Sequence record: SRR31156797_4116
Reading direction: 5' to 3' (one strand)
Length of the DNA stretch: 41,455 bases
Translations under genes and position numbers: made by a program
Notes under the pieces: model-generated
Databases searched by the model: none
What the model saw: the letters and a program-made list of their open reading frames with translations, nothing else
Told to the model about the DNA's origin: nothing
In this document: positions 10,504 to 26,098 of the stretch, in pieces
Numbering within the stretch: position 1 is the stretch's first letter
Layout of the letters: each line of letters opens with the position of its first letter

Positions 10504-11613
10504 CTATTCCAGCAAAAGCCCCTTTTGATTTCCCTTTTGATGGATACCTTTTGAAATCACCAACTTTTGCCCCACTTTCTCACCGGCGTTCCGAACCTTG
10601 GCATTCTGTCGCAGGGGTTTTCCCCGATATGCAGTAATATGGGGATAACGGTAGGCGGCATATTTTTTTAACAGGGGATCTTCCATCTTAATGATCCCAA
10701 AACCTGTTGCAGAAGCACGTTGTTCAGATTGGCTGTTCAGCTTTTGCTCGAAACCTTCCAGAACACCGAGGGCGAAATCGGTGCGCCGATAGCGATTCAA
10801 CCCCCTGTTTCGGTTGTATTCCCGCCATTGGAATTCAATAAAACGGTTTACAAAATCGTACACATAACCGGCTATCTGCACATTCTTTTCCGTGCCGCTG
10901 ATCTCCAAAACACGCCCCATTTTCCCCTTTTCCATGACATAGGTGCTGACCCACAGGCAATAAACATAATAGAACTCACCCAACAAATATGCCAGACGGT
11001 GCTCTTCCCTGAAACGCCGCAGCATGGGTTCTCCCAGGAATACGCTTACGAAATTCCGATCCTGCTCAAGGCGAACCAGATCGATATTGTATTTGTCCAC
11101 CAGTTCGTGGGCCTTTGCCATGGCCGCTTCCGCTTCATGCTGATTTCGACTCTGGGCCAGACTCATGAGTTTTTGGATGCGCACCATCATTTTATCTTCA
11201 TGATTTTCGGAATCCTCCAACACCTTTTCATCCAGCAGTCTGAAGTTTCCCGAAGCGGCAGGATCGGCCCGGAGGTGGTAACACGCCTCTTTAAAGCAGG
11301 GACCGTGAGGGGGTTCATTGCGCGCCCCCAGAACCTCTTGGGCAAACTGATGGGCCATCTCATGCTTGAGCACCTGGCGAACCGCATTCCAGGAATGTTC
11401 CAGCACAAGGGACCGGCTCATGACGATCTCCCGGTTTTTCCCTGACCAATATCCCCACCGGTGATTCATATCTTGAATGGCAAACAGGGGTTTTCGCATT
11501 TGATCTTCATAGGAAGAGGGCAAAACCCACAGGGCCGTATCCCATTCACAGGAAAGCCCGTGAAGGATTCGATGTTCCAGGGATTCCTGTATTTCAATTG
11601 CGTTTGATTTCAT
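10504..11613 (-). CDS. SprT-like zinc metallopeptidase domain + DUF2786-like domain protein
   Basis: HExxH (KHEMAHQ) followed by PHGPCF; RIQKLMSLAQSRNQHEAEAAMAKAHELVDKYNI typical of DUF2786. Confidence 0.8.
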   Translation of the reverse strand: MKSNAIEIQESLEHRILHGLSCEWDTALWVLPSSYEDQMRKPLFAIQDMNHRWGYWSGKNREIVMSRSLVLEHSWNAVRQVLKHEMAHQFAQEVLGARNEPPHGPCFKEACYHLRADPAASGNFRLLDEKVLEDSENHEDKMMVRIQKLMSLAQSRNQHEAEAAMAKAHELVDKYNIDLVRLEQDRNFVSVFLGEPMLRRFREEHRLAYLLGEFYYVYCLWVSTYVMEKGKMGRVLEISGTEKNVQIAGYVYDFVNRFIEFQWREYNRNRGLNRYRRTDFALGVLEGFEQKLNSQSEQRASATGFGIIKMEDPLLKKYAAYRYPHITAYRGKPLRQNAKVRNAGEKVGQKLVISKGIHQKGNQKGLLLE

Positions 11614-13037: not shown

Positions 13038-14753
13038 ATGAGAAAACACCCTGTAATTTCGAGAAACCTGTTCTTCATGTGCCTGCTTTCATTTTCAGTG
13101 GGCATTATTGCGGGCTTGGGCGCATGGGCCTTTCGAATGCTCATCGGGTTGGTTCACAATGTTCTGTTCCTGGGTAAATTTCAGTTCTATTATGATGCAA
13201 ATGTTCATACGCCCGAAAACCCATGGGGACCCGGTGTCATTCTGGTGCCGGTGATCGGAGCGTTCATGGTTGCGTGGCTGGTGAAAACCTTCGCCCCGGA
13301 AGCCAAGGGTCACGGTGTCCCGGAGGTAATGGACGCGGTCTATTACAATGATTCCAAAATCCGCCCCGTGGTCGGTCTCATCAAAGCGGTCGCATCGGCC
13401 GTCTGTATCGGCAGCGGCGGCTCGGTGGGCCGTGAAGGACCCATCATCCAGATCGGCGCCTCATTCGGATCAACCCTGGGGCAGATCCTCAAACTTCCCC
13501 CGCGGCAGATTGTAACCTTGATTGCCGCGGGCGCCGCCGGGGGCATTGCCGCCACATTTAATGCACCCCTGGGAGGGCTGGTATTCGGAATAGAACTCTT
13601 ACTGGTCAGTATCAACGCCAGAAACATTCTTCCGGTGACCATTGCCAGCGTTACCGCCACCTATATCGGCCGAGCCCTTTTAGGGGTTGAACCCTCTTTC
13701 TATTTCCCCGCCCTAACGCCGCTGGACCTTCACCTGAGTTCCGTATGGGACCTCCTTCTTTTCGTACCCTTCGGGATTATCATGGGGCTGGTTTCAACCC
13801 TTTTCGTCCGCGGCATTTACTGGGCCGAAGACCGCTTTGATGCCATGCCGGGCAACACCTACACCCGACATCTATCGGCCATGTTCGCCGTGGGCGTAAT
13901 GATCTGGCTCTTCATGGGCCACACCGGGCATTATTATGTTCAGGGTGTTGGATATGCCACCATTATGGATATTTTAAAAGCCGTCCCTCTGGATCCCCGG
14001 CTTTTAATTCTGCTCTTCTGTTGCAAATTTGTGGCCACCTGCCTCACACTCGGTTCCGGCGGTTCGGGGGGTGTTTTTTCCCCATCCCTTTTCATGGGCG
14101 CCACCATGGGTGCACTGGTCGGCCATTTCGGCGCAACTCTTTTTCCCGGCATCGGCATCGATCCCGTGGACTTTGCCATCGCCGGAATGGCGGCAGGCGT
14201 GGGCGCCTCCACCGGTGCAATCATCACCGGGGCCGTCATGATTTTGGAGATGACCCAGGATGCAAATGTGGTTATGCCCATCATGATTACCTCCGCCTTC
14301 GCCTATGGGATACGCAAATGGCTGTCGCCCGGCAGCATTTACACCCTGAAACTTCTCCGGCGGGGACATATTGTCCCTGAAGGCCTACAGGCGGCCATGA
14401 GCGAATCCTTGACGGTGCAGGACATCATGGCAAAAACATACACAACCGTTGACGCGGAAGCACCCCTTAAGCCCTCTGAAAAACCCGTGCTGGTGACATC
14501 GGGGGAAACCATCGTCGGCGTGGTTCCGCCCCATACCGGCGGAAGCAGGGCAAAATTGATCAGCAACCGTCATTATATCATGACACCGGAGAAAAACCCC
14601 ATAAACGATCTTCTGAGAGAAATGCGTAGCAGCGGCGCAAAATTCGCGCTGGTGACGGGGACTCCCGGCAACCCCATGACCCGTGAAATAATTGGCATCG
14701 TCGCGGAAGGCGAGGTTGCCGCCAGCACAATGCGGGAAGCGGAATTAAAATAA
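13038..14753 (+). CDS. ClC-family chloride channel / Cl-/H+ antiporter with degenerate CBS tail
   Basis: GHGVPE, GREGP, FNAPLGG, GGVFSPS motifs. Confidence 0.93.
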   Translation: MRKHPVISRNLFFMCLLSFSVGIIAGLGAWAFRMLIGLVHNVLFLGKFQFYYDANVHTPENPWGPGVILVPVIGAFMVAWLVKTFAPEAKGHGVPEVMDAVYYNDSKIRPVVGLIKAVASAVCIGSGGSVGREGPIIQIGASFGSTLGQILKLPPRQIVTLIAAGAAGGIAATFNAPLGGLVFGIELLLVSINARNILPVTIASVTATYIGRALLGVEPSFYFPALTPLDLHLSSVWDLLLFVPFGIIMGLVSTLFVRGIYWAEDRFDAMPGNTYTRHLSAMFAVGVMIWLFMGHTGHYYVQGVGYATIMDILKAVPLDPRLLILLFCCKFVATCLTLGSGGSGGVFSPSLFMGATMGALVGHFGATLFPGIGIDPVDFAIAGMAAGVGASTGAIITGAVMILEMTQDANVVMPIMITSAFAYGIRKWLSPGSIYTLKLLRRGHIVPEGLQAAMSESLTVQDIMAKTYTTVDAEAPLKPSEKPVLVTSGETIVGVVPPHTGGSRAKLISNRHYIMTPEKNPINDLLREMRSSGAKFALVTGTPGNPMTREIIGIVAEGEVAASTMREAELK

Positions 14754-14817
14754 AAAGAGGTACATCACCGATTTCCCCATGTAAATTCACACGAAAATGT
14801 ATGATGCCGTTTTTATC

Positions 14818-14840
14818 TTGACAATTGAATATGCATTTGT
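14818..14840 (+). promoter_or_regulatory. Candidate promoter (-35 TTGACA) overlapped by an AT-rich imperfect palindrome, possibly a metal-responsive operator
   Basis: TTGACA 14818-14823; ACAATTGAATATGCATTTGT (14821-14840) is 16/20 self-complementary; no clean -10. Confidence 0.45.
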
Positions 14841-14918
14841 TTGTTATGAAAAACGACACTGGGTTTCCGGCAAAAGATATTCTGATTTTTCCGTTCTTTT
14901 TTTGTGGGGGGTGCTGAA

Positions 14919-17303
14919 ATGTCAGGCGAAGATCCAAACAGACCGATGAAAAGCCCGGAACCCATGCAACTTGATGTTGAAGTAATACATGAAAAAGCGC
15001 CCCCGATGCCAAAGGGAATGGAACTTTCCGAGCGCACCCTTTCATGCCGGATCATGCATTCCATTCGCGGCCGGCTTCGCATTACCCTTCCCCTCTTGAA
15101 ATTCAAAAAGGACCCCATTAACTCCCTCCGGCATTACCTGTCCGCCATGAACCGGATTGAGAAAGTAGAGAGCAATTTCCGTTGCGGCAGCCTGACGATC
15201 CACTATGAATTTCCAAAGACCAATAAATCCGAAATCCTGGAAAAAATTGAAGGTTTGACCTTGAATGAGCTGGACCGGATGGCGACGGACCTGCCGGCGG
15301 TCCGGAAGGAAGAGCATGAAGTATCCCTGTCATACCTTAAAGGGGCCGCCGGTGCGGTGGGTTTAAGTCTTCTCCTGGCCGGCGTTCCGGGGCTCGCCCT
15401 GGCGGTGGTTTATCCGTTTCTGATTTTCATCTGCCTCCCCATCTACAAACGGGCCTACCGCTGCCTGCGATATGAACGCCGGCTGAATGTGGATTTCCTG
15501 GACGCCAGCGCCCTCACGGTGGGCATGTTAACCGGAGACGTCATCAATGCATCGCTCATGGTGATGCTCATCCACCTGGGCGACTATATCCGGGACCTGA
15601 CCGCCGCCAGTTCCCAACGGACCATCCGAAAGCTCCTTGACTTCCAGGATAACTACGCCTGGGTGCTCAGGGAGGGGGTGGAGGTTCAAATTCAGGTCAA
15701 GGATATTGTGGAAGGAGACGTGGTGGCCCTCAACACGGGCGACCTCATTCCCGTGGACGGTGAAGTCATTGAAGGGGAATTGATCGTCGATCAACAGGTT
15801 TTAACCGGCGAATCGCTTCCGGCGCACAAAGAAGTGGGCGACAAGGCATTCGCCTCCACCGTCATCAAAGACGGAAATGCTTACATCAGGGCCACCCGTG
15901 TGGGCGATCGTACCAAAGTGGCCCAGGTGGTCCGCCTGGTGGAGGAGGCACCCCTCTATGAAACCAAGATCCAGAACCATGCCGAAAAGTTCGCCGATCG
16001 GCTGGTGGCACCTTCACTGATCTCCACCTGCTTGATCTTCGCGGGAACCATGAACGTGGCCCAACTGGCGGCCATGCTGACGGTTGATTTCGGCACGGGC
16101 GTCCGCGTGGCGGCGCCCACTGCGGTCCTCTCCTCCATGATTACCTCCGCGTCAAACGGCATATTGATCAAAGGCGGAAGTTATCTGGAAAAACTGTGTC
16201 ATACGGACACCATCATATTTGATAAAACCGGAACGTTAACCACCGGCATCATCCACGTGGAGGACCTGGTATCATTCAACGGATATGGGAATCCGGAACT
16301 CTTGAGTTATGCCGCCACCGCCGAAATGCAGATGACCCATCCCATTGCCGAAGCGGTGGTCCGACACGCCACGAACCTGGGCATTCCCCTGAAAAATCGA
16401 AAGGGCGTCAAATATGTTGTGGGGCGGGGCGTACAGGCGGATATCGAAGGGAAACAAACCCTGGTGGGAAGCCTGAGGCTCATGCGGGAAAACGGCGTGC
16501 ATATCCATTCGTCGGTACTTGAAAGAAGGGATAGGCTGGTTGATGGGGGGAAAGCCTGTCTTTATGTGGCCATCGATAACAATTTCGGCGGCATTATCTC
16601 TTTCAGGGACCAGGTCCGGAAAGAATCCAAACAGATGATCGACCAACTTCACCGGGTCGGCGTCAAACAGGTCATCATGCTCACCGGGGATGTGGAACAG
16701 GTGGCCAGGCCGGTGTGCGACGCCCTCGGCATTGACAAATGCCATGCCGAAATGCTACCGGAACAGAAGGCGGAAGTGGTCAAAGACCTCAAGGAAAAAG
16801 GGCACACAGTCGCCTTTGTGGGTGACGGCATCAACGATTCCGTGGCCCTGTCCTATGCCGACATCGGCATTTCCGTCAAAGGCGGCGCCGATATCGCCAA
16901 GGAAACGGCGGGGGTCATTCTTTTAAACGAAAACCTGCTCAACATTCCGAAAGCCTTTGAAATCAGCAAACAGACCATCGGACTCATCAAGGAAAGCTAC
17001 TGGATTGTGGGGACTTTCAATGTGTTTGCCTATGCCCTGGCGGCGTTCGGATTGGCTTCACCGGTACTCACCACGCTGATCAGCAACGGTTCCGCAGTGG
17101 TGGCGTGCATCAATGGCATGAAACCGATAATTCGCATGAAGCTGGGCGCCGGTGGGAAAAAGCAACCGGATGTCGTATTAACGCAACAGATTGGAAAACT
17201 CAGGCTGTCCGGTGGCAAAAAGGATGATTCACCACAGAGGGTGGAAGAGATTCCGTATCACCGGGATGAAGAGGCTCATCCCGGTGAAATGGTAATTCAC
17301 TGA
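14919..17303 (+). CDS. fezB: P1B-type ATPase, FezB/P1B-6-like, with N-terminal HMA-like domain
   Basis: LTGES, DKTGT, THP, MLTGD, GDGIND; DFGTG where CPC normally lies; ISNGSA in the last TM; N-terminal HSIRGRLRI domain lacking CxxC; gene symbol rests on motifs and context. Confidence 0.8.
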   Translation: MSGEDPNRPMKSPEPMQLDVEVIHEKAPPMPKGMELSERTLSCRIMHSIRGRLRITLPLLKFKKDPINSLRHYLSAMNRIEKVESNFRCGSLTIHYEFPKTNKSEILEKIEGLTLNELDRMATDLPAVRKEEHEVSLSYLKGAAGAVGLSLLLAGVPGLALAVVYPFLIFICLPIYKRAYRCLRYERRLNVDFLDASALTVGMLTGDVINASLMVMLIHLGDYIRDLTAASSQRTIRKLLDFQDNYAWVLREGVEVQIQVKDIVEGDVVALNTGDLIPVDGEVIEGELIVDQQVLTGESLPAHKEVGDKAFASTVIKDGNAYIRATRVGDRTKVAQVVRLVEEAPLYETKIQNHAEKFADRLVAPSLISTCLIFAGTMNVAQLAAMLTVDFGTGVRVAAPTAVLSSMITSASNGILIKGGSYLEKLCHTDTIIFDKTGTLTTGIIHVEDLVSFNGYGNPELLSYAATAEMQMTHPIAEAVVRHATNLGIPLKNRKGVKYVVGRGVQADIEGKQTLVGSLRLMRENGVHIHSSVLERRDRLVDGGKACLYVAIDNNFGGIISFRDQVRKESKQMIDQLHRVGVKQVIMLTGDVEQVARPVCDALGIDKCHAEMLPEQKAEVVKDLKEKGHTVAFVGDGINDSVALSYADIGISVKGGADIAKETAGVILLNENLLNIPKAFEISKQTIGLIKESYWIVGTFNVFAYALAAFGLASPVLTTLISNGSAVVACINGMKPIIRMKLGAGGKKQPDVVLTQQIGKLRLSGGKKDDSPQRVEEIPYHRDEEAHPGEMVIH

Positions 17304-17308
17304 TATAC

Positions 17309-17317
17309 TGTTATAAT
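17309..17317 (+). promoter_or_regulatory. Extended -10 promoter element upstream of the small membrane protein genes
   Basis: Perfect TGnTATAAT (TGTTATAAT), 17 nt before ATG 17335, with SD GGAG 17325-17328 between. Confidence 0.5.
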
Positions 17318-17334
17318 GTGGGGGGGAGATCAAT

Positions 17335-17574
17335 ATGGGTGCATTTTTCTGGGGCATGGTCGGCGGCGCTATGGTTCTTCTGGCCAACAAAAGAAAGGGT
17401 CTTCAGTCGGCCGCCGCTTCGGCCGGTAAAGCCGGCCAGGGGATTGTTTCAGGATTTCGATTTTGCACGGGTGAGGTCATTGAAAACCTGAGAGATCTCG
17501 TGGCGGAAAGCAAATTGGAATTTGAAGCGGAAAAGGCTGCGCTGGATGAGGTCAGGCTGCATGATAAACAATAG
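17335..17574 (+). CDS. Small single-TM FezA-like protein 1
   Basis: N-terminal GMVGG hydrophobic helix; C-terminal DLVAESKLEFE. Confidence 0.75.
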   Translation: MGAFFWGMVGGAMVLLANKRKGLQSAAASAGKAGQGIVSGFRFCTGEVIENLRDLVAESKLEFEAEKAALDEVRLHDKQ

Positions 17575-17606
17575 AAATATTCCACTAATGTAAAAAGGAG
17601 GTCGTC

Positions 17607-17834
17607 ATGGAAGAAATTGCATTGGGTATTGTGGGTGGTATTGTGGTGGTGGCGGTGGTAACAAAAACAAAGATACTTCGGGGAGCGGCCAAGAAGGTCA
17701 TCAAAACCGGATATGCACTGTCCGGTGCGTTGGCCGCGGGCGGTGCGTCCGCCATGGACTCCGCCAAAGATCTGATGGCTGAAAGCAAAGCTGAATTTGA
17801 AGCGGCCCAGACTGCCAAGGCTGAAGTCGCCTAA
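17607..17834 (+). CDS. Small single-TM FezA-like protein 2 (DUF5132-like)
   Basis: GIVGG helix, LRGAAKKVIKTG, DLMAESKAEFE; SD AAGGAGG. Confidence 0.8.
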   Translation: MEEIALGIVGGIVVVAVVTKTKILRGAAKKVIKTGYALSGALAAGGASAMDSAKDLMAESKAEFEAAQTAKAEVA

Positions 17835-17879
17835 GTTTTATGATAAAGATACAAAAGGTTTTACAAGGAAGAATCGGAA

Positions 17880-17926
17880 CCATCCGGAAACAGGTGCTCT
17901 TAAGGCATGTTTTCGGATGGGTTTTC
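17880..17926 (+). terminator. Stem-loop / probable terminator after the two small genes
   Basis: CCATCCGGAAACA (17880-17892) pairs with TGTTTTCGGATGG (17908-17920), followed by GTTTTC. Confidence 0.6.
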
Positions 17927-18063
17927 GTTGACTTGATTCATTAACGGAACAAACTTGTTTCGTAAAGCACGCTGAAGCGCCCCGTTGTGTTTCCGGTTGC
18001 CTGTTTTCAAGCTGAGTCTATCAGGCGTGCCCAATAGCTGATAACAAAAAAAATGGGGTAAAA

Positions 18064-18618
18064 ATGGAAATAGCACATCAGCTTCCCGGGAGGGTTCGGG
18101 TCAGAATACCCGGGCTCACGTCAGAAGGCTACCGGAGAGAACTGGTTGAGAGACTGTCAAATGATGACCGCATTTCAGGCCAGCGTATCAGCTCAGCCTC
18201 TAACAGCCTTATTGTATCCTACGATCCGTTACGCATTCAAACCGAAGATCTTCTGTCCCTGCTGTCCGAGGGGAAACCTTCCAAGTCGCCCAAATCCCGA
18301 AAAAGCCCCGGTTTAAAAGCCGGAAAAACCAAGGTTGCCAAAAAGGTTTCCCCTTCCGGACCGGGCGAAAAAGCCAAGGTCAAGGCAAAAAAGGCTCCCG
18401 TTCAAAAATATTTCAAGCCTGCGGTTTCCACCGGCGTTCAGGAAAAGATCCGAAACATCATCAGTAAAGAGGATCCTCAAAAGCCCTGGAGCGACGGGAA
18501 AATTTCAGGGATGCTGAAAGCCGAAAAAATTGAAATCGCTCGCAGAACCGTGGCCAAATATCGGGAGATGATGGGCATACCGTCTTCCAACAATCGGCGA
18601 AAACAGGATGTATCTTAA
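18064..18618 (+). CDS. HMA-like domain + Lys/Pro-rich linker + sigma-54 C-terminal (RpoN-box) DNA-binding domain fusion
   Basis: N-terminal HQLPGRVRVRI...SNSLIVSYDP; C-terminal EDPQKPWSDGKI...IARRTVAKYREMMGIPSS. Confidence 0.85.
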   Translation: MEIAHQLPGRVRVRIPGLTSEGYRRELVERLSNDDRISGQRISSASNSLIVSYDPLRIQTEDLLSLLSEGKPSKSPKSRKSPGLKAGKTKVAKKVSPSGPGEKAKVKAKKAPVQKYFKPAVSTGVQEKIRNIISKEDPQKPWSDGKISGMLKAEKIEIARRTVAKYREMMGIPSSNNRRKQDVS

Positions 18619-18698
18619 ACGGCACGGATATTTTTTTTACCTGAGATGGTTCAGATAATTTGCCTGGGCTGAATAAAAAATCAAGGAGATAATTGTAA

Positions 18699-18929
18699 AT
18701 GGAATTGATTCTTTCAGGAATTATCGGAGGGGTGATTGTTCTCATGTTTATGAAATTCGCCCCGAAGAAATCGATCCTGAAACTTTTGCTGAAAATGTTT
18801 CTCGTGGTAAGGGACTATCTTTTATCCATCATCGGGGAGGGGTTGGAAAAATTTAAGGACCTCTTTGCGGAGAGCAAGGCCGAATACGAAAGGGAAAAAG
18901 AAGCGGAAAAAGAAGTTCATATGGATTAA
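18699..18929 (+). CDS. Small single-TM FezA-like protein 3
   Basis: GIIGG helix; DLFAESKAEYE; SD AAGGAG. Confidence 0.75.
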   Translation: MELILSGIIGGVIVLMFMKFAPKKSILKLLLKMFLVVRDYLLSIIGEGLEKFKDLFAESKAEYEREKEAEKEVHMD

Positions 18930-18936
18930 AGCAATC

Positions 18937-19581
18937 ATGAAAAATATGAAAATCAAGCTGAAGGTAATTCATTTCATTTCAGGCAGAGCAAGAATAAAAG
19001 TTGATTCAGGATTTGATCCCAAAGTTTTCTTCTATGTGCTTGAAGCCGGATTACGGGAAATCCGTGAAATTAAAAAGGCCGACCTGAATCCTTATTCTCA
19101 ATCGATCACCGTTTTTTTCAGAAATGACGTTGATATAGAGACAATTTTGAAGGAACTGAGGCGTGTCCTCACGGACATCGCCAATGATCCTGAGTTTCCG
19201 AATCGAATGGAAGATATCAAAGACGCTTTGACCTATGGTGACAAGGCCGGAATGAATGTGGTTGTGCGTGATAAGATCCTCAATGTTTCACATAACCTGG
19301 ACCAGGCCGTCAGGCACATGTCAGGAAACACCGTGGACATGCGGACCGCCGTGCCGGTGTCTTCCGTGGCCACAGGCATTGCCGCTCTTGTTCTGGCACC
19401 CGGTTGGGCAACACCCGCCTGGCTTGTTCTGCTGACCTTCGGCATTACCTCATTTCATCTGCTGAAACATGATCACCGGGAAACGGACGCTCCGGTTAAC
19501 CCGTTACTTTCAAAAACAGTCCGGCCCGAACCCATGAAGCTTATTGAAAAAGCGCCGTCAAGTTCACCTGAAACGCTTTAG
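18937..19581 (+). CDS. FezC-like protein: HMA-like N-terminal domain + two C-terminal TM segments
   Basis: HFISGRARI...NPYSQSITVFF; C-terminal DMRTAVP...TPAWLVLLTFG; start moved to ATG 18937. Confidence 0.7.
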   Translation: MKNMKIKLKVIHFISGRARIKVDSGFDPKVFFYVLEAGLREIREIKKADLNPYSQSITVFFRNDVDIETILKELRRVLTDIANDPEFPNRMEDIKDALTYGDKAGMNVVVRDKILNVSHNLDQAVRHMSGNTVDMRTAVPVSSVATGIAALVLAPGWATPAWLVLLTFGITSFHLLKHDHRETDAPVNPLLSKTVRPEPMKLIEKAPSSSPETL

Positions 19582-19657
19582 GCCCATTTTTAACCACTCA
19601 TTTTCCCCCGGCCGAACAAACGGCCAAAAGATCCGGTTGCCCATAGAAAGCCTGACG

Positions 19658-20740
19658 ATGGTTATGGCCACGATAAAGGAATACTTCCAGGCTGCTCAGC
19701 GGGAAAAAGCCACCGATATCTATTTCAGCGTCGGCTCTCCCCCATTGTTAAAGATAAACGGTGGATTGCATCCCCTTAAGCCCCATCCGGATTTAAGTAA
19801 AGCGAAAATAGAGATGCTTGCCCGTGAAGTACTTTCACCGGAGAATCTGTCTGAGTTTGAATCCCGCCGGGAGGTGATCTGCGCCCGTACAATCGATGGT
19901 CTGGGGCGCCTGCGGATTGTTCTTTCAGATGCACGCAAGGGGCCCTGCATGGTCTGTCGTTTAATCCCCTTGAACATCCCCGAATTTGACAGCCTCGGTT
20001 TGCCATCCCTCCTGAAGCACGTGATTTCAGCCGGCACGGGCCTCATGCTGGTCATGGGCAATGCAGGGTCGGGGAAAACCGCGACGCTGGCATCACTCAT
20101 ACAGCATATCAATAACACCAGGGAAAAATCGATTTTAACCATCGAATCACCCGTGGAATATGTGCAACCCCATAACCGATCCCTTATGGAACCGATCCGA
20201 CCCCGGAAAAACGGCATGTTGTTGGACAAGAGTGCTTACAGCAGTCTTTTTGGAACAGCGGATGTGATGGTTATCGATGGTCTTCCGTTTGAAGAAACCA
20301 TTTCTCCGGCCCTTACCGCCGCCGCCGAAGGGCTTCTGGTTCTTGCGGCCCTGGAGACAAACGGCGGGGTGGCGGAAGTCCTGGCCCGTATTATCAATGG
20401 CGTTTCCGCCGCAAAACAAGGATACAGAAGAAGCCTGCTTGCACGCACATTGCGCGGTGCCATATGGCAACACCTTTTACCCCTGAAAGACGGTTCGGGC
20501 TTCACTCCGGCAGTTGAGGTTCTTATAAATGACCCTGTCATCTCACGCCTTATGGGCCAAAAAGGAAATCTCCATCTGCTCCGACCGGCCATGGCCGCAG
20601 GGCGATACAAAGGGATGCAGACCATGCACCAGGCACTGGAAGCCCTGAAACGACAGTCAATTGTGCAGGAGGACATCATGGCCGCTTTTGAAAATGAGAT
20701 CCTGAAATATTATGTGTCTCCCATCAAAGGCAGTTTCTGA
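19658..20740 (+). CDS. Divergent PilT/PilU-like ATPase 1
   Basis: ATDIYFSVGSPP, RLIP, Walker A GNAGSGKT, TIESPVEY, GMQTM; Walker B Glu and His box absent. Confidence 0.8.
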   Translation: MVMATIKEYFQAAQREKATDIYFSVGSPPLLKINGGLHPLKPHPDLSKAKIEMLAREVLSPENLSEFESRREVICARTIDGLGRLRIVLSDARKGPCMVCRLIPLNIPEFDSLGLPSLLKHVISAGTGLMLVMGNAGSGKTATLASLIQHINNTREKSILTIESPVEYVQPHNRSLMEPIRPRKNGMLLDKSAYSSLFGTADVMVIDGLPFEETISPALTAAAEGLLVLAALETNGGVAEVLARIINGVSAAKQGYRRSLLARTLRGAIWQHLLPLKDGSGFTPAVEVLINDPVISRLMGQKGNLHLLRPAMAAGRYKGMQTMHQALEALKRQSIVQEDIMAAFENEILKYYVSPIKGSF

Positions 20741-20768
20741 TCCGCCGTTATGGGGTAAAGGAGGATTC

Positions 20769-21851
20769 ATGGGGAAATCAAAGCAATCGCCACACGGCAA
20801 ATCCGGATCAATAATTGAGGCCCTGTTTATCCTGGCCAGGAAAAAAGAGGCCTCGGATCTCTACCTGACCACCGGGGATCATCCGGTTTTGAAAATCCAC
20901 GGCAAACTGGAAAGGCTTAAGGAATATCCGGTCCTTGCGGAGAGCAGAATCGAGGAACTCTTTTACGCGGCACTCTCCCCCGCTCAAAAGCAGGATTTTG
21001 AAAATCGGATGGAACTTGAATTGACCTATGCAACCGAATCGGCAGGAACCATCCAGATCATTTTATATGCCGCCGAAGACGGGATCGGCGCAGCATGCCG
21101 ATTGATTCCTTTTGAGATTCCATCCCTTGGGGATATGGGGCCCATTGAATCCCTTGAGAAAATACCTTCTTTCGACCGGGGATTGATTCTCATTACCGGT
21201 AAGGCCAATTGTGCCAAAGCCATCACCATCGCATCGATCATCGACCACATTAATACCCATTCAAATAAGAGCATTGTTACCATGGAGGATCCGATCCGAT
21301 TTGCCCATAAATCCAAATCCTCCCTCATCTTTCAGCGTGAAATGGGTCTTCACGTGAATAGCTATACGGACGGTCTAAAAACGGCCATGCGAAGCGACAT
21401 GGACGTCATTTACTTCACTGAAATTGACGGTCCGGAAACCCTCATCATGGCCATGACCGCAGCTGAAAGTCACCTGGTGCTCACCACCAGTATCAGTTTT
21501 GGAAGCGTGGCCTGGGCCATTCGCAAGCTTTTCGACTTCTTCCCAAACGATCGGCAGGAATATGTCCGCACGCATCTATCACGGGTTTTGCGGGCGCTGA
21601 TCTGGCAACACGTCATTCCCGTGGAGGGGCACACCGACACGAAGATCGCCATGGAAATCATGTTTAATAACGAAAAAATTGCCGCCTTGATTCAGAATGG
21701 TAAATTACACAAGGTCCACGGTGAAATCCAGAAAGGCTCCGAGGGGATGCAGACCATGCACAGCAGTTTATCCAGAATGGGAGAAATCGCCATAGACATC
21801 TGGAAATTGATGGCAGCCGATGTGGGAACGACACTCCTTTTCGCCATTTAG
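20769..21851 (+). CDS. Divergent PilT/PilU-like ATPase 2 with degenerate Walker A
   Basis: ASDLYLTTG, GLILITGKANCAKA, TMEDPI, QREMG, MRSDMDVIYFTEID, GMQTM; SD AAGGAGG before ATG 20769. Confidence 0.8.
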   Translation: MGKSKQSPHGKSGSIIEALFILARKKEASDLYLTTGDHPVLKIHGKLERLKEYPVLAESRIEELFYAALSPAQKQDFENRMELELTYATESAGTIQIILYAAEDGIGAACRLIPFEIPSLGDMGPIESLEKIPSFDRGLILITGKANCAKAITIASIIDHINTHSNKSIVTMEDPIRFAHKSKSSLIFQREMGLHVNSYTDGLKTAMRSDMDVIYFTEIDGPETLIMAMTAAESHLVLTTSISFGSVAWAIRKLFDFFPNDRQEYVRTHLSRVLRALIWQHVIPVEGHTDTKIAMEIMFNNEKIAALIQNGKLHKVHGEIQKGSEGMQTMHSSLSRMGEIAIDIWKLMAADVGTTLLFAI

Positions 21852-21885
21852 CGCCATGCCTATGCCAGCTCCGAGGAAAAGACAA

Positions 21886-22641
21886 ATGTTGACAACAACC
21901 GATTTCAGCATAAAACATTCCATTTCCGGCCGTCTCCGCATCACATTTCCCGCCCTGGTATCGAAGAAAAATCCGACCCGGCGCTTAACAACCCATTTAT
22001 CCAAGCAAAAAGGGATAGACCATGTGCGGTCCAACCATTTCTGCGGCAGTATAACCATCCACTACAATCCTGAAATCTCTGAGAAACAGCATATCCTGGA
22101 CATGATAAGGGATGTCCGGTGGAATGATCTGGTCCCGCCGGATGTTCCCATTGCCGGGGTTATAAAGCAGAAAGCCGTCAAGCATCCTCCCCTCCGAAAC
22201 CACAGGAAAAAGAAAGGTATCCGCAGGCTCTGGAATGTGGCGGGCAGCATATCCATGGGCGTCGGCATCGTGGGCGTCTTTCTTCCATTGCTCCCCACCG
22301 TTCCCTTATTCTTGCTGGCCGGTTTCTGCTACTGGAGAGGCTCGCCCGGATTTTACAACCGCCTCATCAATTTTGGGTCAATGGGTCGATTGATCGATAA
22401 TTTTCGAAAGGGGAAGGGCCTTCCGGCCAAAATGAAATCCCGCGCCATTGTATTCATGTGGATTTCCATGGCAACCTCAATGATTTTCTTTGTGAACAGC
22501 AGCACCCTCAGAACGGTCATGGTGCTGCTCGGCATCGGTGTAACCCTCTATATTCTGAAGATCAAAACAGCTGATCCGGATATTTATCCCCTTGAACATG
22601 GACAGATTTCCGCAAAGATCGATCCGGTCAAAGGTGAATGA
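21886..22641 (+). CDS. HMA-like domain fused to a YbaN/DUF454 membrane domain
   Basis: HSISGRLRI...SNHFCGSITIHY; then GIVGVFLPLLPTVPLFLLAGFCYWRGS, typical of DUF454; start ATG 21886 with GAGG SD. Confidence 0.8.
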   Translation: MLTTTDFSIKHSISGRLRITFPALVSKKNPTRRLTTHLSKQKGIDHVRSNHFCGSITIHYNPEISEKQHILDMIRDVRWNDLVPPDVPIAGVIKQKAVKHPPLRNHRKKKGIRRLWNVAGSISMGVGIVGVFLPLLPTVPLFLLAGFCYWRGSPGFYNRLINFGSMGRLIDNFRKGKGLPAKMKSRAIVFMWISMATSMIFFVNSSTLRTVMVLLGIGVTLYILKIKTADPDIYPLEHGQISAKIDPVKGE

Positions 22642-23318
22642 CCTCAATGGTTTCAAAGACCTATGCCACCTTAATCAATCCGAGAATCAGGCTCGTTCTT
22701 GCCGTGGCAATCGGTTTGGGTGCCTATCTGGTTCTCCCGCAAGGCACAAAATTTGAAATCCGATTACTTCTGGCCTGGGACCTTGGGGTACTTTTTCTGC
22801 TTGGCGTTATCCTCATGATGATGAAAAAAGCCGATGCGGAATACACCATGCACCGTGCTCAGATTCAAGAGCCGAGCAATATGGGAACCCTGACATTGAC
22901 GGTACTCATTTCCGGCGCATCCATGGTGGCCATTGCTTTCATGCTGAACGACGGCAGGCATTGGAAGGAGAACCCGGCCAATTTACATCTGGGGCTTTGT
23001 ACCGTTGCCATCTTCTCCGCCTGGTTTCTGCTACATACGTTTTTTGCACTGCATTACGCCCGCCTCTATTATGATGAGACGGGTAAAAGGTCATCAGGAA
23101 ATTATAAGGGAGGGTTGGAATTTCCAGGCGGTAAGCTCGTGGACTACTGGGACTTCATGTATTATTCCTTTACCATTGCAATGTGTTACCAGACTTCCGA
23201 TGTATCCATATCAAACGCTCCCATGCGGAGACTAACACTGATTCATTCAATTCTTTCCTTCATCTTCGTAGCCTTGATTATCGGTCTGGTGGTCAATGTG
23301 GTTTCCAATCTTGCCTGA
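22638..23318 (+). CDS. DUF1345 family membrane protein
   Basis: LHTFFALHYARLYY, GLEFPG, DYWDFMYYSFTIAMCYQTSDV; ATGA overlap with the upstream gene. Confidence 0.88.
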   Translation: MTSMVSKTYATLINPRIRLVLAVAIGLGAYLVLPQGTKFEIRLLLAWDLGVLFLLGVILMMMKKADAEYTMHRAQIQEPSNMGTLTLTVLISGASMVAIAFMLNDGRHWKENPANLHLGLCTVAIFSAWFLLHTFFALHYARLYYDETGKRSSGNYKGGLEFPGGKLVDYWDFMYYSFTIAMCYQTSDVSISNAPMRRLTLIHSILSFIFVALIIGLVVNVVSNLA

Positions 23319-23326
23319 CGGTCTTC

Positions 23327-24634
23327 ATGGGAATCCAGTGTAGAAATGATAAAATACCTTCCCCGAACCGCATCGGTTTAAAGCCCTGGATCATCTGGGG
23401 GTCTGCCGCCCTCTTCTTTTTCTATGAATATCTACAGCGGGTAGCCCCCAGCGTCATGGTGCCGGATCTCATGGGCGCATTTCACATTGAGGGCACCGCC
23501 ATGGGGGAGTTGGGAGCATTTTATTACTACGCCTACGCCGTTCTGCAAATTCCCGTGGGCGTCCTGGCAGACCGATACGGCCCCCGACGGCCGCTTGTGA
23601 TGGCGGCGATGTTGTGTGCGGGGGGGAGCTTTCTCTTTGCCGCAGCCCAGGGACTGGGGGCGGCCGAACTGGGTCGCCTCCTCATCGGTGCGGGATCGGG
23701 TTTCGCCTTTGTGTGCTGCCTGAGACTTGCGGCAAACTGGTTTCCCGAAAACCATTTCGGATTGCTTGTGGGTCTCACCAACATGCTGGGCATGGTAGGG
23801 GCCATCAGCGGAGAAGCGCCCCTGGCAGCCATGGTCCATCATCTTCAATGGCGGGGAACGTTCTATTTTCTGGGGGCCCTTGGCATTACCCTGGCCGTAC
23901 TCATTCTTGTGGTTGTCCGAGACCGCCCAGAACCGAGAACCGGAATCCGGGGGTTCCAGGAAGGGGGCTGGAGCAGTCTGTTCAATGATCTGAAGGTGGT
24001 CATGGGAAACCCGCAAAGCTGGTTCAACGGTATTTATGCGGGATGTATCAACGCCCCCCTGGCGGCCTTCGGAGCACTCTGGGGAGTCTCCTTCATGACC
24101 GGGGTTTACGGACTTGATACCGAGGCAGCCGCCGCATCCATTTCCATCCTTTTTGTGGGCTGTATGCTGGGCAGCGCATTTCATGGGTGGATTTCGGATT
24201 TTCTGGGGAAAAGAAAACCACCCATGATCATGAGCGGGATCTTTTCTCTCGCTATTATGCTGGCGATTCTTTACATTAAAGGCATGTCCCTTTTTGCGGC
24301 AAATGCGCTTCTGTTCACTTTGGGTTTCATGGGGCAAGGTCCGGTCATCGCCTACGCCGCCGGCCGCGAGGTCAATCCGTCAGCGGCCGCCGGAATTTCC
24401 TCCGGCCTGATCAATACCCTGCTCATCGGTATGGGAGCTGTTTCCCAGGCTATGGTGGGTTGGCTCCTGGACCGTCACTGGACCGGAACCACACATAATA
24501 GTGAGCTGCTCTATACGGCTGCGGATTTCCGGTTTGCCATGAACATACTGATTGTCCTGTTGGTAATCGGCAACCTTTCCAGTTTCATGATCCGGGAAAC
24601 CCATTGCCGGCAGATAGGGGACCCCGGCAATTAA
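23327..24634 (+). CDS. Major facilitator superfamily transporter
   Basis: FFFYEYLQRVAPS, GVLADRYGPRR, GRLLIGAG, GWISDFLGKRKP; about 12 TM helices; start approximate. Confidence 0.9.
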   Translation: MGIQCRNDKIPSPNRIGLKPWIIWGSAALFFFYEYLQRVAPSVMVPDLMGAFHIEGTAMGELGAFYYYAYAVLQIPVGVLADRYGPRRPLVMAAMLCAGGSFLFAAAQGLGAAELGRLLIGAGSGFAFVCCLRLAANWFPENHFGLLVGLTNMLGMVGAISGEAPLAAMVHHLQWRGTFYFLGALGITLAVLILVVVRDRPEPRTGIRGFQEGGWSSLFNDLKVVMGNPQSWFNGIYAGCINAPLAAFGALWGVSFMTGVYGLDTEAAAASISILFVGCMLGSAFHGWISDFLGKRKPPMIMSGIFSLAIMLAILYIKGMSLFAANALLFTLGFMGQGPVIAYAAGREVNPSAAAGISSGLINTLLIGMGAVSQAMVGWLLDRHWTGTTHNSELLYTAADFRFAMNILIVLLVIGNLSSFMIRETHCRQIGDPGN

Positions 24635-24664: not shown

Positions 24665-26098
24665 ATGCTGACGAATTCAAGCAAAAACCTCTGCCTCTTC
24701 CACATCCTCGACGGATTGCGTCAAGGGCTCAGTAGCTTCTCCGGTCCCAGCCGGGCCGCCGTCATCTTTGCGGAAAAACCCCATGATCCCATTTCCGTCT
24801 ACGACCCACAGGATCTTCTCCGGGGGCATGAACCCATGCTCAAGGAAATCTATCTGGATACGGGCAAATGGCATGAAAATTCAGAAATAACTGAAGGGAT
24901 AAAGCATTTGGGCCAGATTTTTCCGGAAAAAAATCTTGAACTCTCGGGCCTCATTTCCAGAGGGGCCAGAACGCGATCCGTATTTTACCAGATGTGGTTC
25001 ACGGAACATCACCCGGACGTCTGCTCCATCGGCCCCACCGAAAGGTGGCTTGAGCATGCGGCATTCCTTCTTTCCCTTGATTTTACCATTGAAGGACCCT
25101 ACTACTCAGCCACATCGGGATACCTTTTACGGGAGTACGCCACCCACGCCGTGCGCGATTACATTCTGGATGAACTCTGCATCATGTTTGGGTGGGATAT
25201 CAAAATTTTTGTGCTGCCCATCCTGGATGCCATCCTGGGCATCTCAAAAACCCGGGAAGAAGGCGCCTGGCCCAGGGGCAAACTGGTTTTTATTTCGCCG
25301 GAAAATTTTTCCGAGGTTGATTTTCTGGTGCGCTTTCCGCCCAATGAACGACCCAGCCTCAAAAAACATAAACATGTACGAAAACTACTTCAGGCCGTGG
25401 AACATTCCGATCGCAAACTCATTTCCTTCGGGAATCATGTGGTGGGCATCGCGGCAGGCGAGATGCCGAAACGGAGATCCACGGCATATTTTCAAGGGGA
25501 TTTCGGTTTTCTGAGGCTTTCGGGGGAACCCATTTGCAGCTTTTCAGACGGCAAGGTCTATTCTTCCACCCAGAGGCCTAACCTGGTGAACCTGGAAGAG
25601 GCCCTTCTGGAATTTCCCATGGATACTTCCATCAGACACTCCCTTTTCAGAATCGTCACCACCATCGTTTACGGCGCGAGCAAGGAGAAGCATGGCTGCA
25701 CCCTGGTCATCGATCTCACCCCCGTTGCGGTAACCCTTTCGGGACAGCAGCTGGAAAACCCCGTGGATCTTCAAAAAAGGCCGCTGCTGAGCCTGGCCAG
25801 ATCCCTGGCAAAGCTGGATGGGGCCCTTCACCTGAGAGAAGACCTTCACCTCCACGGTTTTGCCTGTCTGCTGCACGGAGGCGCCGTTCCCGGGGAAGAT
25901 CGCGCACGAGGCGCCCGTTTCAACTCAGCCCTACGTTTCAGTGCCGAACACCCCAAGGTCATTGTGGTGGTGGTTTCCTCGGACAGGCCGGTTTCAGTGA
26001 TTCAAGAGGGCGTAGAACTCTCAGCCCAGTGCGAATGGGAGCCCTTTTCCAAATTACTCCAGCCACCCCCCTCCCTTGCAAAATGGATCGCATCGTAA
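24665..26098 (+). CDS. DisA_N/diadenylate-cyclase-like domain protein with long N-terminal (putative sensor) region
   Basis: HGCTLVID, LAKLDGAL, RGARFNSALRF, VVVVSSDRPVSV. Confidence 0.75.
   Translation: MLTNSSKNLCLFHILDGLRQGLSSFSGPSRAAVIFAEKPHDPISVYDPQDLLRGHEPMLKEIYLDTGKWHENSEITEGIKHLGQIFPEKNLELSGLISRGARTRSVFYQMWFTEHHPDVCSIGPTERWLEHAAFLLSLDFTIEGPYYSATSGYLLREYATHAVRDYILDELCIMFGWDIKIFVLPILDAILGISKTREEGAWPRGKLVFISPENFSEVDFLVRFPPNERPSLKKHKHVRKLLQAVEHSDRKLISFGNHVVGIAAGEMPKRRSTAYFQGDFGFLRLSGEPICSFSDGKVYSSTQRPNLVNLEEALLEFPMDTSIRHSLFRIVTTIVYGASKEKHGCTLVIDLTPVAVTLSGQQLENPVDLQKRPLLSLARSLAKLDGALHLREDLHLHGFACLLHGGAVPGEDRARGARFNSALRFSAEHPKVIVVVVSSDRPVSVIQEGVELSAQCEWEPFSKLLQPPPSLAKWIAS

Follow-up and report, generated by a model that had tools for sequence, protein, structure and literature searches.

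The RpoN domain is known as part of the sigma factor sigma-54. What, then, could such a domain do when it is carried by a small protein that lacks the remainder of the factor and is encoded in the middle of a membrane-ATPase operon? This question is raised by a 184-amino-acid (aa) open reading frame (ORF) in SRR31156797_4116, a stretch of 41,455 nucleotides (nt) which is here called the window (that is, the whole stretch of DNA that was analysed). In the original prediction, the ORF had been divided into (i) an HMA-like (heavy-metal-associated) domain; (ii) a Lys/Pro/Ser-rich linker; and (iii) a sigma-54 RpoN domain, and it had been proposed to be either a membrane- or metal-responsive competitor at sigma-54 promoters or a tether between a compartment and the chromosome.

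As described below, both folded domains are conserved and under selection, the gene keeps a fixed place in a cluster of genes for membrane proteins, and the fusion coexists with an intact rpoN whose RpoN box is identical to its own. With regard to its function, it is tentatively proposed that the fusion is a two-headed adaptor linking a platform or vesicle of HMA_2 proteins, GxxxG proteins and an ATPase to the chromosome, in which the DNA binding, the HMA_2 docking, the compartment and the tethering role are all predicted. This nucleoid tether is slightly favoured over a sequestrable roadblock of sigma-54 promoters, and the two models are not exclusive.

Architecture of the fusion protein

The gene lies on the plus strand, starts with ATG and corresponds to one entry (18064-18618) in the ORF list of the window. 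The following features can be differentiated in it:

18064..18618, plus strand: gene for the HMA_2/RpoN-domain fusion (ORF list, Pfam, 49 full-length homologous clusters, fixed syntenic place).
18064..18270, plus strand: N-terminal HMA_2-type domain, aa 1-69, with an arginine-rich strand, HQLPGRVRVRIP, and without CxxC (Pfam, model, Foldseek, conservation).
18271..18408, plus strand: disordered Lys/Pro/Ser/Ala-rich linker, aa 70-115 (model confidence, charge count).
18409..18615, plus strand: sigma-54 RpoN domain (aa 116-184), a helical bundle with a conserved YFKPAVS ahead of it (PF04552, PDB profile matches).
18538..18567, plus strand: RpoN box ARRTVAKYRE, aa 159-168 (codon arithmetic, alignment).

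The predicted division into three parts is borne out by the ORF list, Pfam, AlphaFold2 and Foldseek, while codon arithmetic reproduces the positions that had been given for the RpoN box (18538-18567) and for the KYF at the start of the C-terminal domain (18406).

Regarding the C-terminal part, Sigma54_DBD (PF04552) matches aa 122-180 with an E-value of 1.9e-20 (73.6 bits; cut-off, 22.8), and this match is confined to profile positions 102-160 of 160, i.e., the last third of the profile. In the fusion protein, no Pfam match was obtained for (i) Sigma54_AID (PF00309, region I), which is present in the full-length control P0244; (ii) Sigma54_CBD (PF04963), which binds core RNA polymerase; or (iii) the extra-long helix and helix-turn-helix (ELH-HTH) that read the -12 element (PF04552 positions ~1-100). 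Along the same line, TIGR02395, the NCBIfam equivalog for rpoN, reaches 71.2 bits against a cut-off of 277.35 and covers only model positions 375-434 of 434. Judging by this domain content, the fusion cannot be a sigma factor or recruit RNA polymerase, because the core-binding and activator-interacting regions are absent; the prediction had said as much, and both Pfam and the partial TIGR02395 match agree with it.

The AlphaFold2 model, built on 31 homologues, consists of a well-defined N-terminal domain (aa 1-69; predicted local distance difference test, pLDDT, ~90), a stretch with pLDDT <50 (aa 70-113) and a helical C-terminal domain (aa 115-183; pLDDT ~86-90). When compared with the PDB by means of Foldseek, the C-terminal domain resembles sigma-54 RpoN domains (root-mean-square deviation, rmsd, ~2.1 Å over 55 residues; 47% identity) and the N-terminal domain resembles the HMA domains of MerP, ATP7B and CopZ (rmsd ~1.5 Å, range 1.4-1.6, over 58 residues; target template-modelling score ~0.7), with every E-value above 0.001 owing to the shortness of the domains (0.009-0.05 for the N-terminal matches). 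In a profile search of the PDB sequences, the top match was 2o8k/2o9l (E 7.7e-19), where residues 11-62 of 2o8k correspond to profile positions 123-174, followed by 2ahq, 2mt3 and residues 415-475 of Escherichia coli sigma-54. The 2o8k/2o9l entries contain the 63-aa RpoN domain of Aquifex solved on the -24 promoter element, and the boundaries of the fusion C-domain coincide with those of this fragment.

As to the N-terminal part, HMA_2 (PF19991) scores 29.0 bits on aa 1-63, just below the gathering cut-off of 30 bits, and a precomputed match to the same family is present in 35 of the 49 homologous clusters. The domain adopts a ferredoxin-like HMA fold in the model, has neither Cys nor CxxC in the window, and carries the RxRxR-type motif GRVRVR at residues 9-14. 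The linker that joins both domains bears +16/-1 charges over 46 aa.

A conserved family of narrow distribution

A word-index search returned 131 proteins out of 297 candidates. The first 49 clusters match the fusion over approximately its full length (E ≤ 8.7e-34; 49-83% identity; 135-243 aa), and the next matches appear only from 2.8e-13 and are sigma-54 C-termini. The fusion is therefore not unique to this assembly, as is also evident from the genome and metagenome loci that carry it (see below). The ESM Atlas contains a 50-member cluster which was automatically named for the HMA_2/RpoN architecture; in their source annotations, the homologues are termed "hypothetical protein" or "sigma-54". 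In addition, an exhaustive HMMER search of 1.84 billion representatives gave nine proteins at E ≤ 1e-30: P0010, P0048 and the partial P0029, all three with the fusion architecture, and six tandem RpoN-domain proteins; no longer protein uniting both domains was found in that search. Proteins with 4-9 tandem RpoN-like domains (P0121-P0126, P0129, P0132 and P0266; 303-671 aa) include some with degenerate RpoN boxes and one, P0121, with a lipoprotein-like signal at its start; no description of such proteins was found.

In the alignment of 31 members, both folded domains are conserved and the linker is variable in sequence and length. The conserved columns of the N-domain are H5, Q6, L7, G9, R10, R12, R14, D34, R36, S48 and D54 (those from H5 to R14 at ≥90%), with no Cys among them; two N-domain Cys are found in many homologues, at the DYC and ACNSL consensus positions, and are not conserved. 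Each position of the RpoN box is at least 90% conserved. The ratio of nonsynonymous to synonymous substitution rates (dN/dS; Nei-Gojobori, 13 locus pairs), which had been suggested as a check of the prediction, is 0.12-0.29 for the N-domain, 0.08-0.27 for the C-domain (two comparisons being saturated) and 0.24-1.66 for the linker. Both folded domains are under purifying selection.

Over 41 members (out of 44 distinct sequences, three with odd N-termini were omitted), the linker measures 17-58 aa and its net charge goes from -6 to +22: it is +13 to +22 over 46 aa in the clade of the window, and neutral or acidic in other members. A universal role of the basic linker as a DNA-binding tail is ruled out by the members with acidic or short linkers. 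Because charge and length vary in this way, the RpoN domain, not the linker, would be the constant DNA-binding element of the family.

In a maximum-likelihood tree of 86 distinct RpoN domains, calculated from 68 columns with a midpoint root and with those rpoN rows that are most similar to the fusion, the 19 fusion domains form one group (100/99 support; stem length 0.56) which adjoins the rpoN of Desulfosarcina-type Desulfobacterales and is separate from the rpoN resident in three host genomes. This topology suggests a single origin for the fusion RpoN domain, which would not be a recent copy of the host rpoN. The RpoN domain of the resident sigma-54 of those three genomes (G001-G003; L081-L083 in the tree) has a long branch (1.08), at a distance from the rpoN of other Desulfobacterales.

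With regard to its distribution, the fusion was found in five of the 209 genomes of the host order (for the class, the set is the same) and in 18 metagenome loci. The marker of the gene cluster, HMA2_238, occurs in the same 5/209 genomes. In a sample of 401 genomes of the phylum, the N-domain appears in G001 only, plus one ATPase N-terminus. Since the fusion and the marker share their genomes and the N-domain is nearly absent from the phylum sample, the family, a small conserved protein of some sulfate-reducing bacteria, is narrow in distribution and strictly tied to one cluster.

The N-domain also occurs with other tails. Nine relatives in six clusters (P0128, P0271, P0130, P0140, P0154, P0268, P0269, P0162 and P0166) possess the same N-domain, starting M.IVHQLPGRVR..., followed by long K/A/P-rich basic tails, histone-H1-like in character, and no RpoN domain; P0271 is repeat-expanded with respect to P0128. 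A word-index search with P0128 retrieved only P0271 and one fusion, and none of these relatives was present in the 31 metagenome loci, the 209 genomes of the order and class, or the phylum sample. Two further sets of proteins were considered as a possible second fusion family and rejected: P0053, P0059 and P0086 are C-terminal fragments of rpoN, and P0153, P0180, P0243 and P0260 are singletons with unrelated N-termini (patatin-like, HPF-like, HPr-kinase-like and TetR-like) on rpoN 3' ends. The latter four are probably assembly or gene-calling chimeras, and provide a useful negative contrast to the conserved fusion.

The predicted DNA-reading head and the use of sigma-54 in the hosts

The C-terminal 60 aa of Aquifex sigma-54 are reported to bind the -24 element with a dissociation constant of ~109 nM (PMC5626770, citing Doucleff et al., 2007). 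Exactly this binding unit is retained in the fusion and its recognition helix is unchanged, so that the fusion is expected to bind DNA at TGGCAC-type sites.

Three related genomes contain loci which are ~83% identical to the window in DNA and syntenic with it over 10.2-26 kb. Besides the fusion, all three encode a full-length rpoN (one frame each, 509-518 aa, with a complete Sigma54_DBD), so that the intact rpoN which had been anticipated elsewhere in the genome does exist in these relatives; the RpoN box of the fusion is identical to that of their resident sigma-54. In the five fusion-bearing genomes, the AAA+ domain of sigma-54 activators gives 20-42 matches per genome. Because of these numbers, the hosts are considered to rely heavily on sigma-54, and -24 sites should be numerous and dispersed in their chromosomes.

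The gene cluster

The fusion gene is located between two genes for small hydrophobic proteins (Gx2 and Gx3) in a cluster that lies entirely on the plus strand. Apart from the fusion gene, the cluster contains the following genes:

14904..17303, plus strand: P1B-type ATPase carrying HMA_2 at its N-terminus, the gene with which the cluster opens, its translation probably starting from the ATG at 14919 (E1-E2_ATPase and Hydrolase; HMA_2, 33.6 bits; TIGR01525, 486 bits).
17335..17574, plus strand: Gx1, hydrophobic GxxxG N-terminus (GMVGG), then a helix with DLVAESKLEFE (ORF, synteny).
17607..17834, plus strand: Gx2, GxxxG (GIVGG) and DLMAESKAEFE (ORF; 82-97% identical in distant loci).
18699..18929, plus strand: Gx3, GxxxG (GIIGG) and DLFAESKAEYE, directly downstream of the fusion (ORF; mean column identity of 91% over 14 loci).
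18865..19581, plus strand: HMA_2 protein with a hydrophobic C-terminal region, probable start at 18937, the marker HMA2_238 (PF19991, 32.3 bits).
19544..20740, plus strand: PilT-like ATPase 1, Walker A intact (T2SSE; TIGR01420, 246.7 bits, below the cut-off of 319.1).
20712..21851, plus strand: PilT-like ATPase 2, with a degenerate P-loop in the clade of the window (T2SSE; TIGR01420, 259.8 bits, below the cut-off).
21820..22641, plus strand: HMA_2 + DUF454 membrane protein (PF19991, 44.1 bits; PF04304, 109.6 bits).
22638..23318, plus strand: DUF1345 membrane protein, the gene with which the conserved cluster ends (PF07077, 194.7 bits; synteny).

According to Pfam, four HMA_2 domains are thus encoded in one cluster: those of the fusion, the ATPase and two HMA_2 membrane proteins. 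The small Gx proteins share the helix pattern DL.AESKAE[FY]E; in hmmscan at E ≤ 10, Gx1 gave only a weak match to DUF5132 (E 0.008), Gx2 gave nothing, and Gx3 gave matches at chance level. The Walker A motif of PilT-like ATPase 1 is intact in 8/8 loci, and that of PilT-like ATPase 2 reads GKANCAKAI in the window, L002 and L125, and GKSNSGKTT in L108. These two ATPases could be a membrane-remodelling or extraction motor.

The gene order is identical in five genome loci (L001, L002, L003, L108 and L109) and in all 13 metagenome loci that were compared, as far as the contigs reach, and it persists in loci in which the identity of the fusion drops to 49-54% (L128, L129, L108 and L109); in some loci, one extra HMA_2 gene lies ahead of the DUF454 gene. 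The 13 metagenome loci were chosen from the 18 fusion-bearing loci among 31 returned, the other five being short contigs or repeats. Not all loci are independent, as L119 and L120 have the same layout as L002, L127 and L108 are on contigs of equal length, and some are near-duplicates.

Other genes surround the cluster. Directly downstream, a diadenylate cyclase equipped with the sensor domains DACND and DACNH is encoded (24665-26098, plus strand), with an MFS gene in between in the window, and this position is conserved in L002, L003, L119-L123, L125 and L130. A Na/Ca exchanger and a CLC channel flank the cluster in close relatives, but not in G082; upstream of them in the window, a 369-aa protein with SprT-like, DUF2786 and DUF7168 domains is encoded on the minus strand (10504-11613).

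Proposed function: an adaptor between a membrane platform and the chromosome

In the tether model, the C-terminal RpoN head would bind double-stranded DNA at -24-type (TGGCAC) sites, probably with the assistance, in the clade of the window, of the basic histone-H1-like linker. The N-terminal head, arginine-rich and free of Cys, would dock on a membrane platform or vesicle composed of the ATPase and the three GxxxG scaffolds; the same HMA_2 module is found on the P1B-ATPase of the cluster and on two or three neighbouring membrane proteins. Through the protein, a ferrosome-like or effluxosome-like structure would be physically attached to the chromosome, which would be of use for spacing and inheritance; as a side effect of tethering, sigma-54 promoters would unavoidably be occupied.

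The docking step is modelled on two precedents. In Mycobacterium, the PacL proteins are described as small GxxG membrane scaffolds which cluster the pumps CtpC and CtpG by binding their N-terminal domains, which lack CxxC (PMC13460109). In turn, FezB, CtpC and both soluble and membrane proteins encoded in the fez clusters of ferrosomes have been reported to carry an arginine-rich motif (Grant et al., preprint, 10.1101/2020.01.10.902569). From the binding of CxxC-less domains by PacL and from the arginine-rich motif of CtpC, HMA_2 is read as a likely assembly or docking module, and Gx1-3 as its likely scaffolds.

Four observations speak in favour of the tether: (i) the place of the gene inside a structural operon; (ii) its strict co-occurrence with the cluster; (iii) the flexible linker; and (iv) the relatives in which a basic tail takes the place of the RpoN domain.

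Non-coding elements and promoters

Three non-coding features precede the fusion gene:

17880..17920, plus strand: conserved hairpin followed by GTTTTCG (U-tract), located between the genes for Gx2 and the fusion and resembling a terminator or an attenuator (fold, alignment).
17965-18050, plus strand: conserved non-coding block of ~90 nt, AAAGCACGCTG ... GCGTGCC(C)AA[AT]AGCTGATAAC (alignment, upstream of the fusion gene).
18025..18031, minus strand: GGCACGC, a -24-like half-site inside the conserved block, 33 bp upstream of the fusion start codon (motif scan).

The arms of the hairpin (CCATCCGGAAA...TTTTCGGATGG) are conserved in the alignment of loci. The fold of the leader has a z of -1.24, and an Rfam scan of 14600-23500 gave a single match, at chance level, and none for the conserved block. 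The GGCACGC at 18025-18031 is the sole copy in the cluster of the seven present in the window, and 15 of the 19 distinct sequences upstream of the fusion gene contain GTGCC between -36 and -51. This heptamer is not enriched in the window (7 seen versus 4.46 expected; 15 of 100 shuffles reach 7). The half-site is hence taken only as a lead; it may owe its conservation to something else, such as a leader or a promoter.

A scan for -24/-12 promoters (≥9/12 of the consensus) gave 15 sites in the window, versus ~14.7 expected, and none in the intergenic regions of the cluster. A conserved TTGACA-type element is found upstream of the P1B-ATPase gene, and the operon appears to start there.

Weighing the tether against the alternatives

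Several points weigh against the tether or some part of it. With respect to the membrane side, the compartment proposed for the window cluster and the docking of HMA_2 are both drawn by analogy. The fez clusters are characterised by (i) the P1B-6 ATPase FezB, with D[Y/F]SCA, HNxxT and an N-terminal arginine-rich motif; (ii) GxxxG proteins such as FezA; and (iii) arginine-rich soluble and membrane proteins (10.1101/2020.01.10.902569). The ATPase of the cluster fails the FezB signature, as it has VDFGTGV (10/10 loci) instead of D[Y/F]SCA in transmembrane helix 4 and SNGS (SNGSA in the window) instead of HNxxT in transmembrane helix 6; likewise, no Pfam family of the PacL/DUF6110 type was found in Gx1-3 (hmmscan, E ≤ 10). 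With respect to the DNA side, the net charge of the linker is -6 to +3 in P0030, P0033, P0035, P0038 and P0039, and the shortest linker has only 17 aa. The tail-only relatives are all on short contigs. Besides, the conserved -24-like half-site suggests autoregulation, which is typical of transcription factors; and, while the known tethers bind DNA non-specifically, a sequence-specific head with an affinity of ~100 nM fits a regulator at least as well.

Such a regulator is the main alternative, although it is judged somewhat unlikely. As a natural "RpoN roadblock" open to sequestration, the protein, when free, would sit on -24 elements and compete with the sigma-54 holoenzyme at many promoters, also at its own promoter region, until docking of HMA_2 on the ATPase/GxxxG platform pulls it off the DNA. 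How active the sigma-54 regulon is would then depend on the state or the amount of the platform. The scheme resembles the membrane sequestration of repressors, such as that of Mlc by PtsG. The identity between the RpoN box of the fusion and that of the resident sigma-54, the 20-42 activators of the hosts, and an RpoN domain that is invariant across the family, versus a linker of variable charge, are all in agreement with it. The same applies to the engineered RpoN domain which lowered ~700 transcripts in Pseudomonas aeruginosa (PMC5626770). The evidence from the upstream region can be read in both directions: GGCACGC lies 33 bp before the ATG and GTGCC recurs in 15/19 upstream sequences, but the heptamer is not enriched and the site may be conserved for other reasons. 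The genetic context, on the other hand, speaks against it, given that the gene lies in mid-operon between scaffold genes, neither at the edge of the cluster nor divergently transcribed; that no sigma-54 promoter is detectable in the cluster by the -24/-12 scan; and that the window holds no gene for a sigma-54 activator. The relatives with unspecific basic tails in the place of RpoN point, in turn, to bulk DNA binding.

Both models could be combined in a sequence-addressed organelle tether, in which the compartment would be pinned to scattered sigma-54 promoters and, by holding the protein, would gate the sigma-54 regulon; this combination is regarded as rather doubtful.

A stand-alone metal-sensing repressor, in which metal binding by HMA_2 would alter the DNA affinity or the oligomeric state of the RpoN domain with no need of a platform, is improbable. 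The HMA fold of the N-domain, the place of the gene within a P1B-ATPase cluster and the two Cys of many homologues speak for such a sensor. But the N-domain of the window lacks Cys and CxxC, Cys is not found in the conserved columns, the long disordered linker offers no obvious allosteric path, and a domain that recurs in four of the proteins encoded in the cluster is more in keeping with an assembly module. Given the lack of Cys in the N-domain of the window, and of conserved Cys in the homologues, the "metal-responsive" character that had been predicted is weakly supported.

Finally, an assembly chimera or a functionless leftover 3' end of a duplicated rpoN is scarcely credible, since, even if singleton rpoN 3'-end chimeras (P0153, P0180, P0243 and P0260) and many "sigma-54" fragments of 100-135 aa do exist in databases, 49 full-length clusters at 49-83% identity exclude a single contaminating sequence, the fusion is carried by 18 metagenome loci and five genomes and fills a 50-member ESM Atlas cluster, dN/dS is well below 1 in both domains, synteny is fixed, and the 19 fusion RpoN domains form a group of their own (100/99), with a branch of 0.56 between them and the rpoN of Desulfobacterales, and are no copies of the resident gene.

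Comparison with known systems

Among the papers listed by the literature searches, no description was found of a natural, conserved protein that uses the RpoN domain alone or fused to another domain, nor of work joining ferrosomes with sigma-54; the main text of the ferrosome preprint, its supplementary tables of arginine-rich proteins apart, mentions neither RpoN nor DNA binding, and its single "sigma" is part of the name Sigma-Aldrich (10.1101/2020.01.10.902569). The tether, on which this comparison is based, would belong, as would a roadblock, to a known kind of protein (a single-protein nucleoid tether or a promoter roadblock, respectively), built from an unexpected part and confined to a small clade.

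As in the fez clusters of ferrosomes, in the terms in which the preprint describes them, the cluster contains a P1B-ATPase with an arginine-rich N-terminus, small GxxxG proteins and several proteins with an arginine-rich motif; the likeness of Gx1-3 to FezA is at the level of the motif only. Unlike the fez clusters, it lacks DUF4405, FeoA and DUF2202, and has two PilT-like ATPases, DUF454 and DUF1345 instead. The absence of Cys and His from both membrane-site motifs of the ATPase suggests that its substrate is not a soft transition metal. This ATPase may correspond to FezH, the "second ATPase with distinct sites" of the preprint, for which the text of the preprint gives no motifs. Because the ATPase is without the FezB signature, the term ferrosome is applied to this cluster only by analogy: with regard to the "compartment" of the original prediction, ferrosome-like parts are present, but the ATPase does not show the published signature.

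The likeness to the PacL effluxosomes lies in the combination of small Gly-zipper membrane proteins with CxxC-less N-domains of P1B-ATPases, which provides a model for the docking of HMA_2 on Gx1-3. A difference is that, in the account of effluxosomes given in the review PMC13460109, no DNA-binding component is described.

Regarding its DNA-reading head, the C-domain of the fusion is homologous to the RpoN domains of PDB entries 2O8K/2O9L, 2AHQ and 2MT3; it shares their boundaries, and the RpoN box is identical. Unlike sigma-54 itself, the fusion has HMA_2 and a linker in the place of region I, the core-binding domain and the ELH-HTH. The closest functional precedent is engineered: an isolated RpoN domain of 60 aa (RpoN*, the "molecular roadblock") changed ~700 transcripts in P. 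aeruginosa, and mutation of the RpoN-box Tyr weakened the peptide (Lloyd et al., 2017, PMC5626770). The fusion resembles RpoN* in containing an isolated RpoN domain of ~60 aa, which in RpoN* binds -24 sites and lowers transcription in vivo; an engineered version thus already shows that such a fragment acts in the cell (PMC5626770). But RpoN* is synthetic and free-standing, whereas the fusion is natural and conserved, is carried on a docking-type domain and is encoded in a membrane-ATPase operon.

In one recent review, no positioning system is listed for ferrosomes (PMC13052382), and a second one raises the questions of what gives ferrosome membranes their shape and of whether there are ferrosome-like structures that hold other cargo (PMC13463818). 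For these three questions, the cluster provides candidates: a DNA-binding adaptor, two PilT-like ATPases and a P1B-ATPase without Cys or His in its membrane site. If the sequence-addressed organelle tether considered above is true, organelle inheritance and global transcription would be coupled through one adaptor of 184 aa.

In functional terms, the fusion would have its nearest counterparts in PhaM, PhaF, PhaH and AlgP, in which the N-terminus binds a granule and the C-terminus binds DNA, with histone-like tails being used by PhaM and PhaF (PMC13052382). The predicted arrangement of the fusion, an N-terminal part for the cargo and a C-terminal part for DNA, is the same, and the K/A/P/S-rich stretch found in the clade of the window resembles the tails of PhaM, PhaF and AlgP; this likeness defines a functional class, not a homologous family. 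The PhaM-type tethers have no sequence relationship with the fusion, bind DNA non-specifically and hold polyhydroxybutyrate or polyphosphate granules, whereas the fusion carries the sequence-specific head of a sigma factor and its presumed cargo is a membrane ATPase platform or vesicle.

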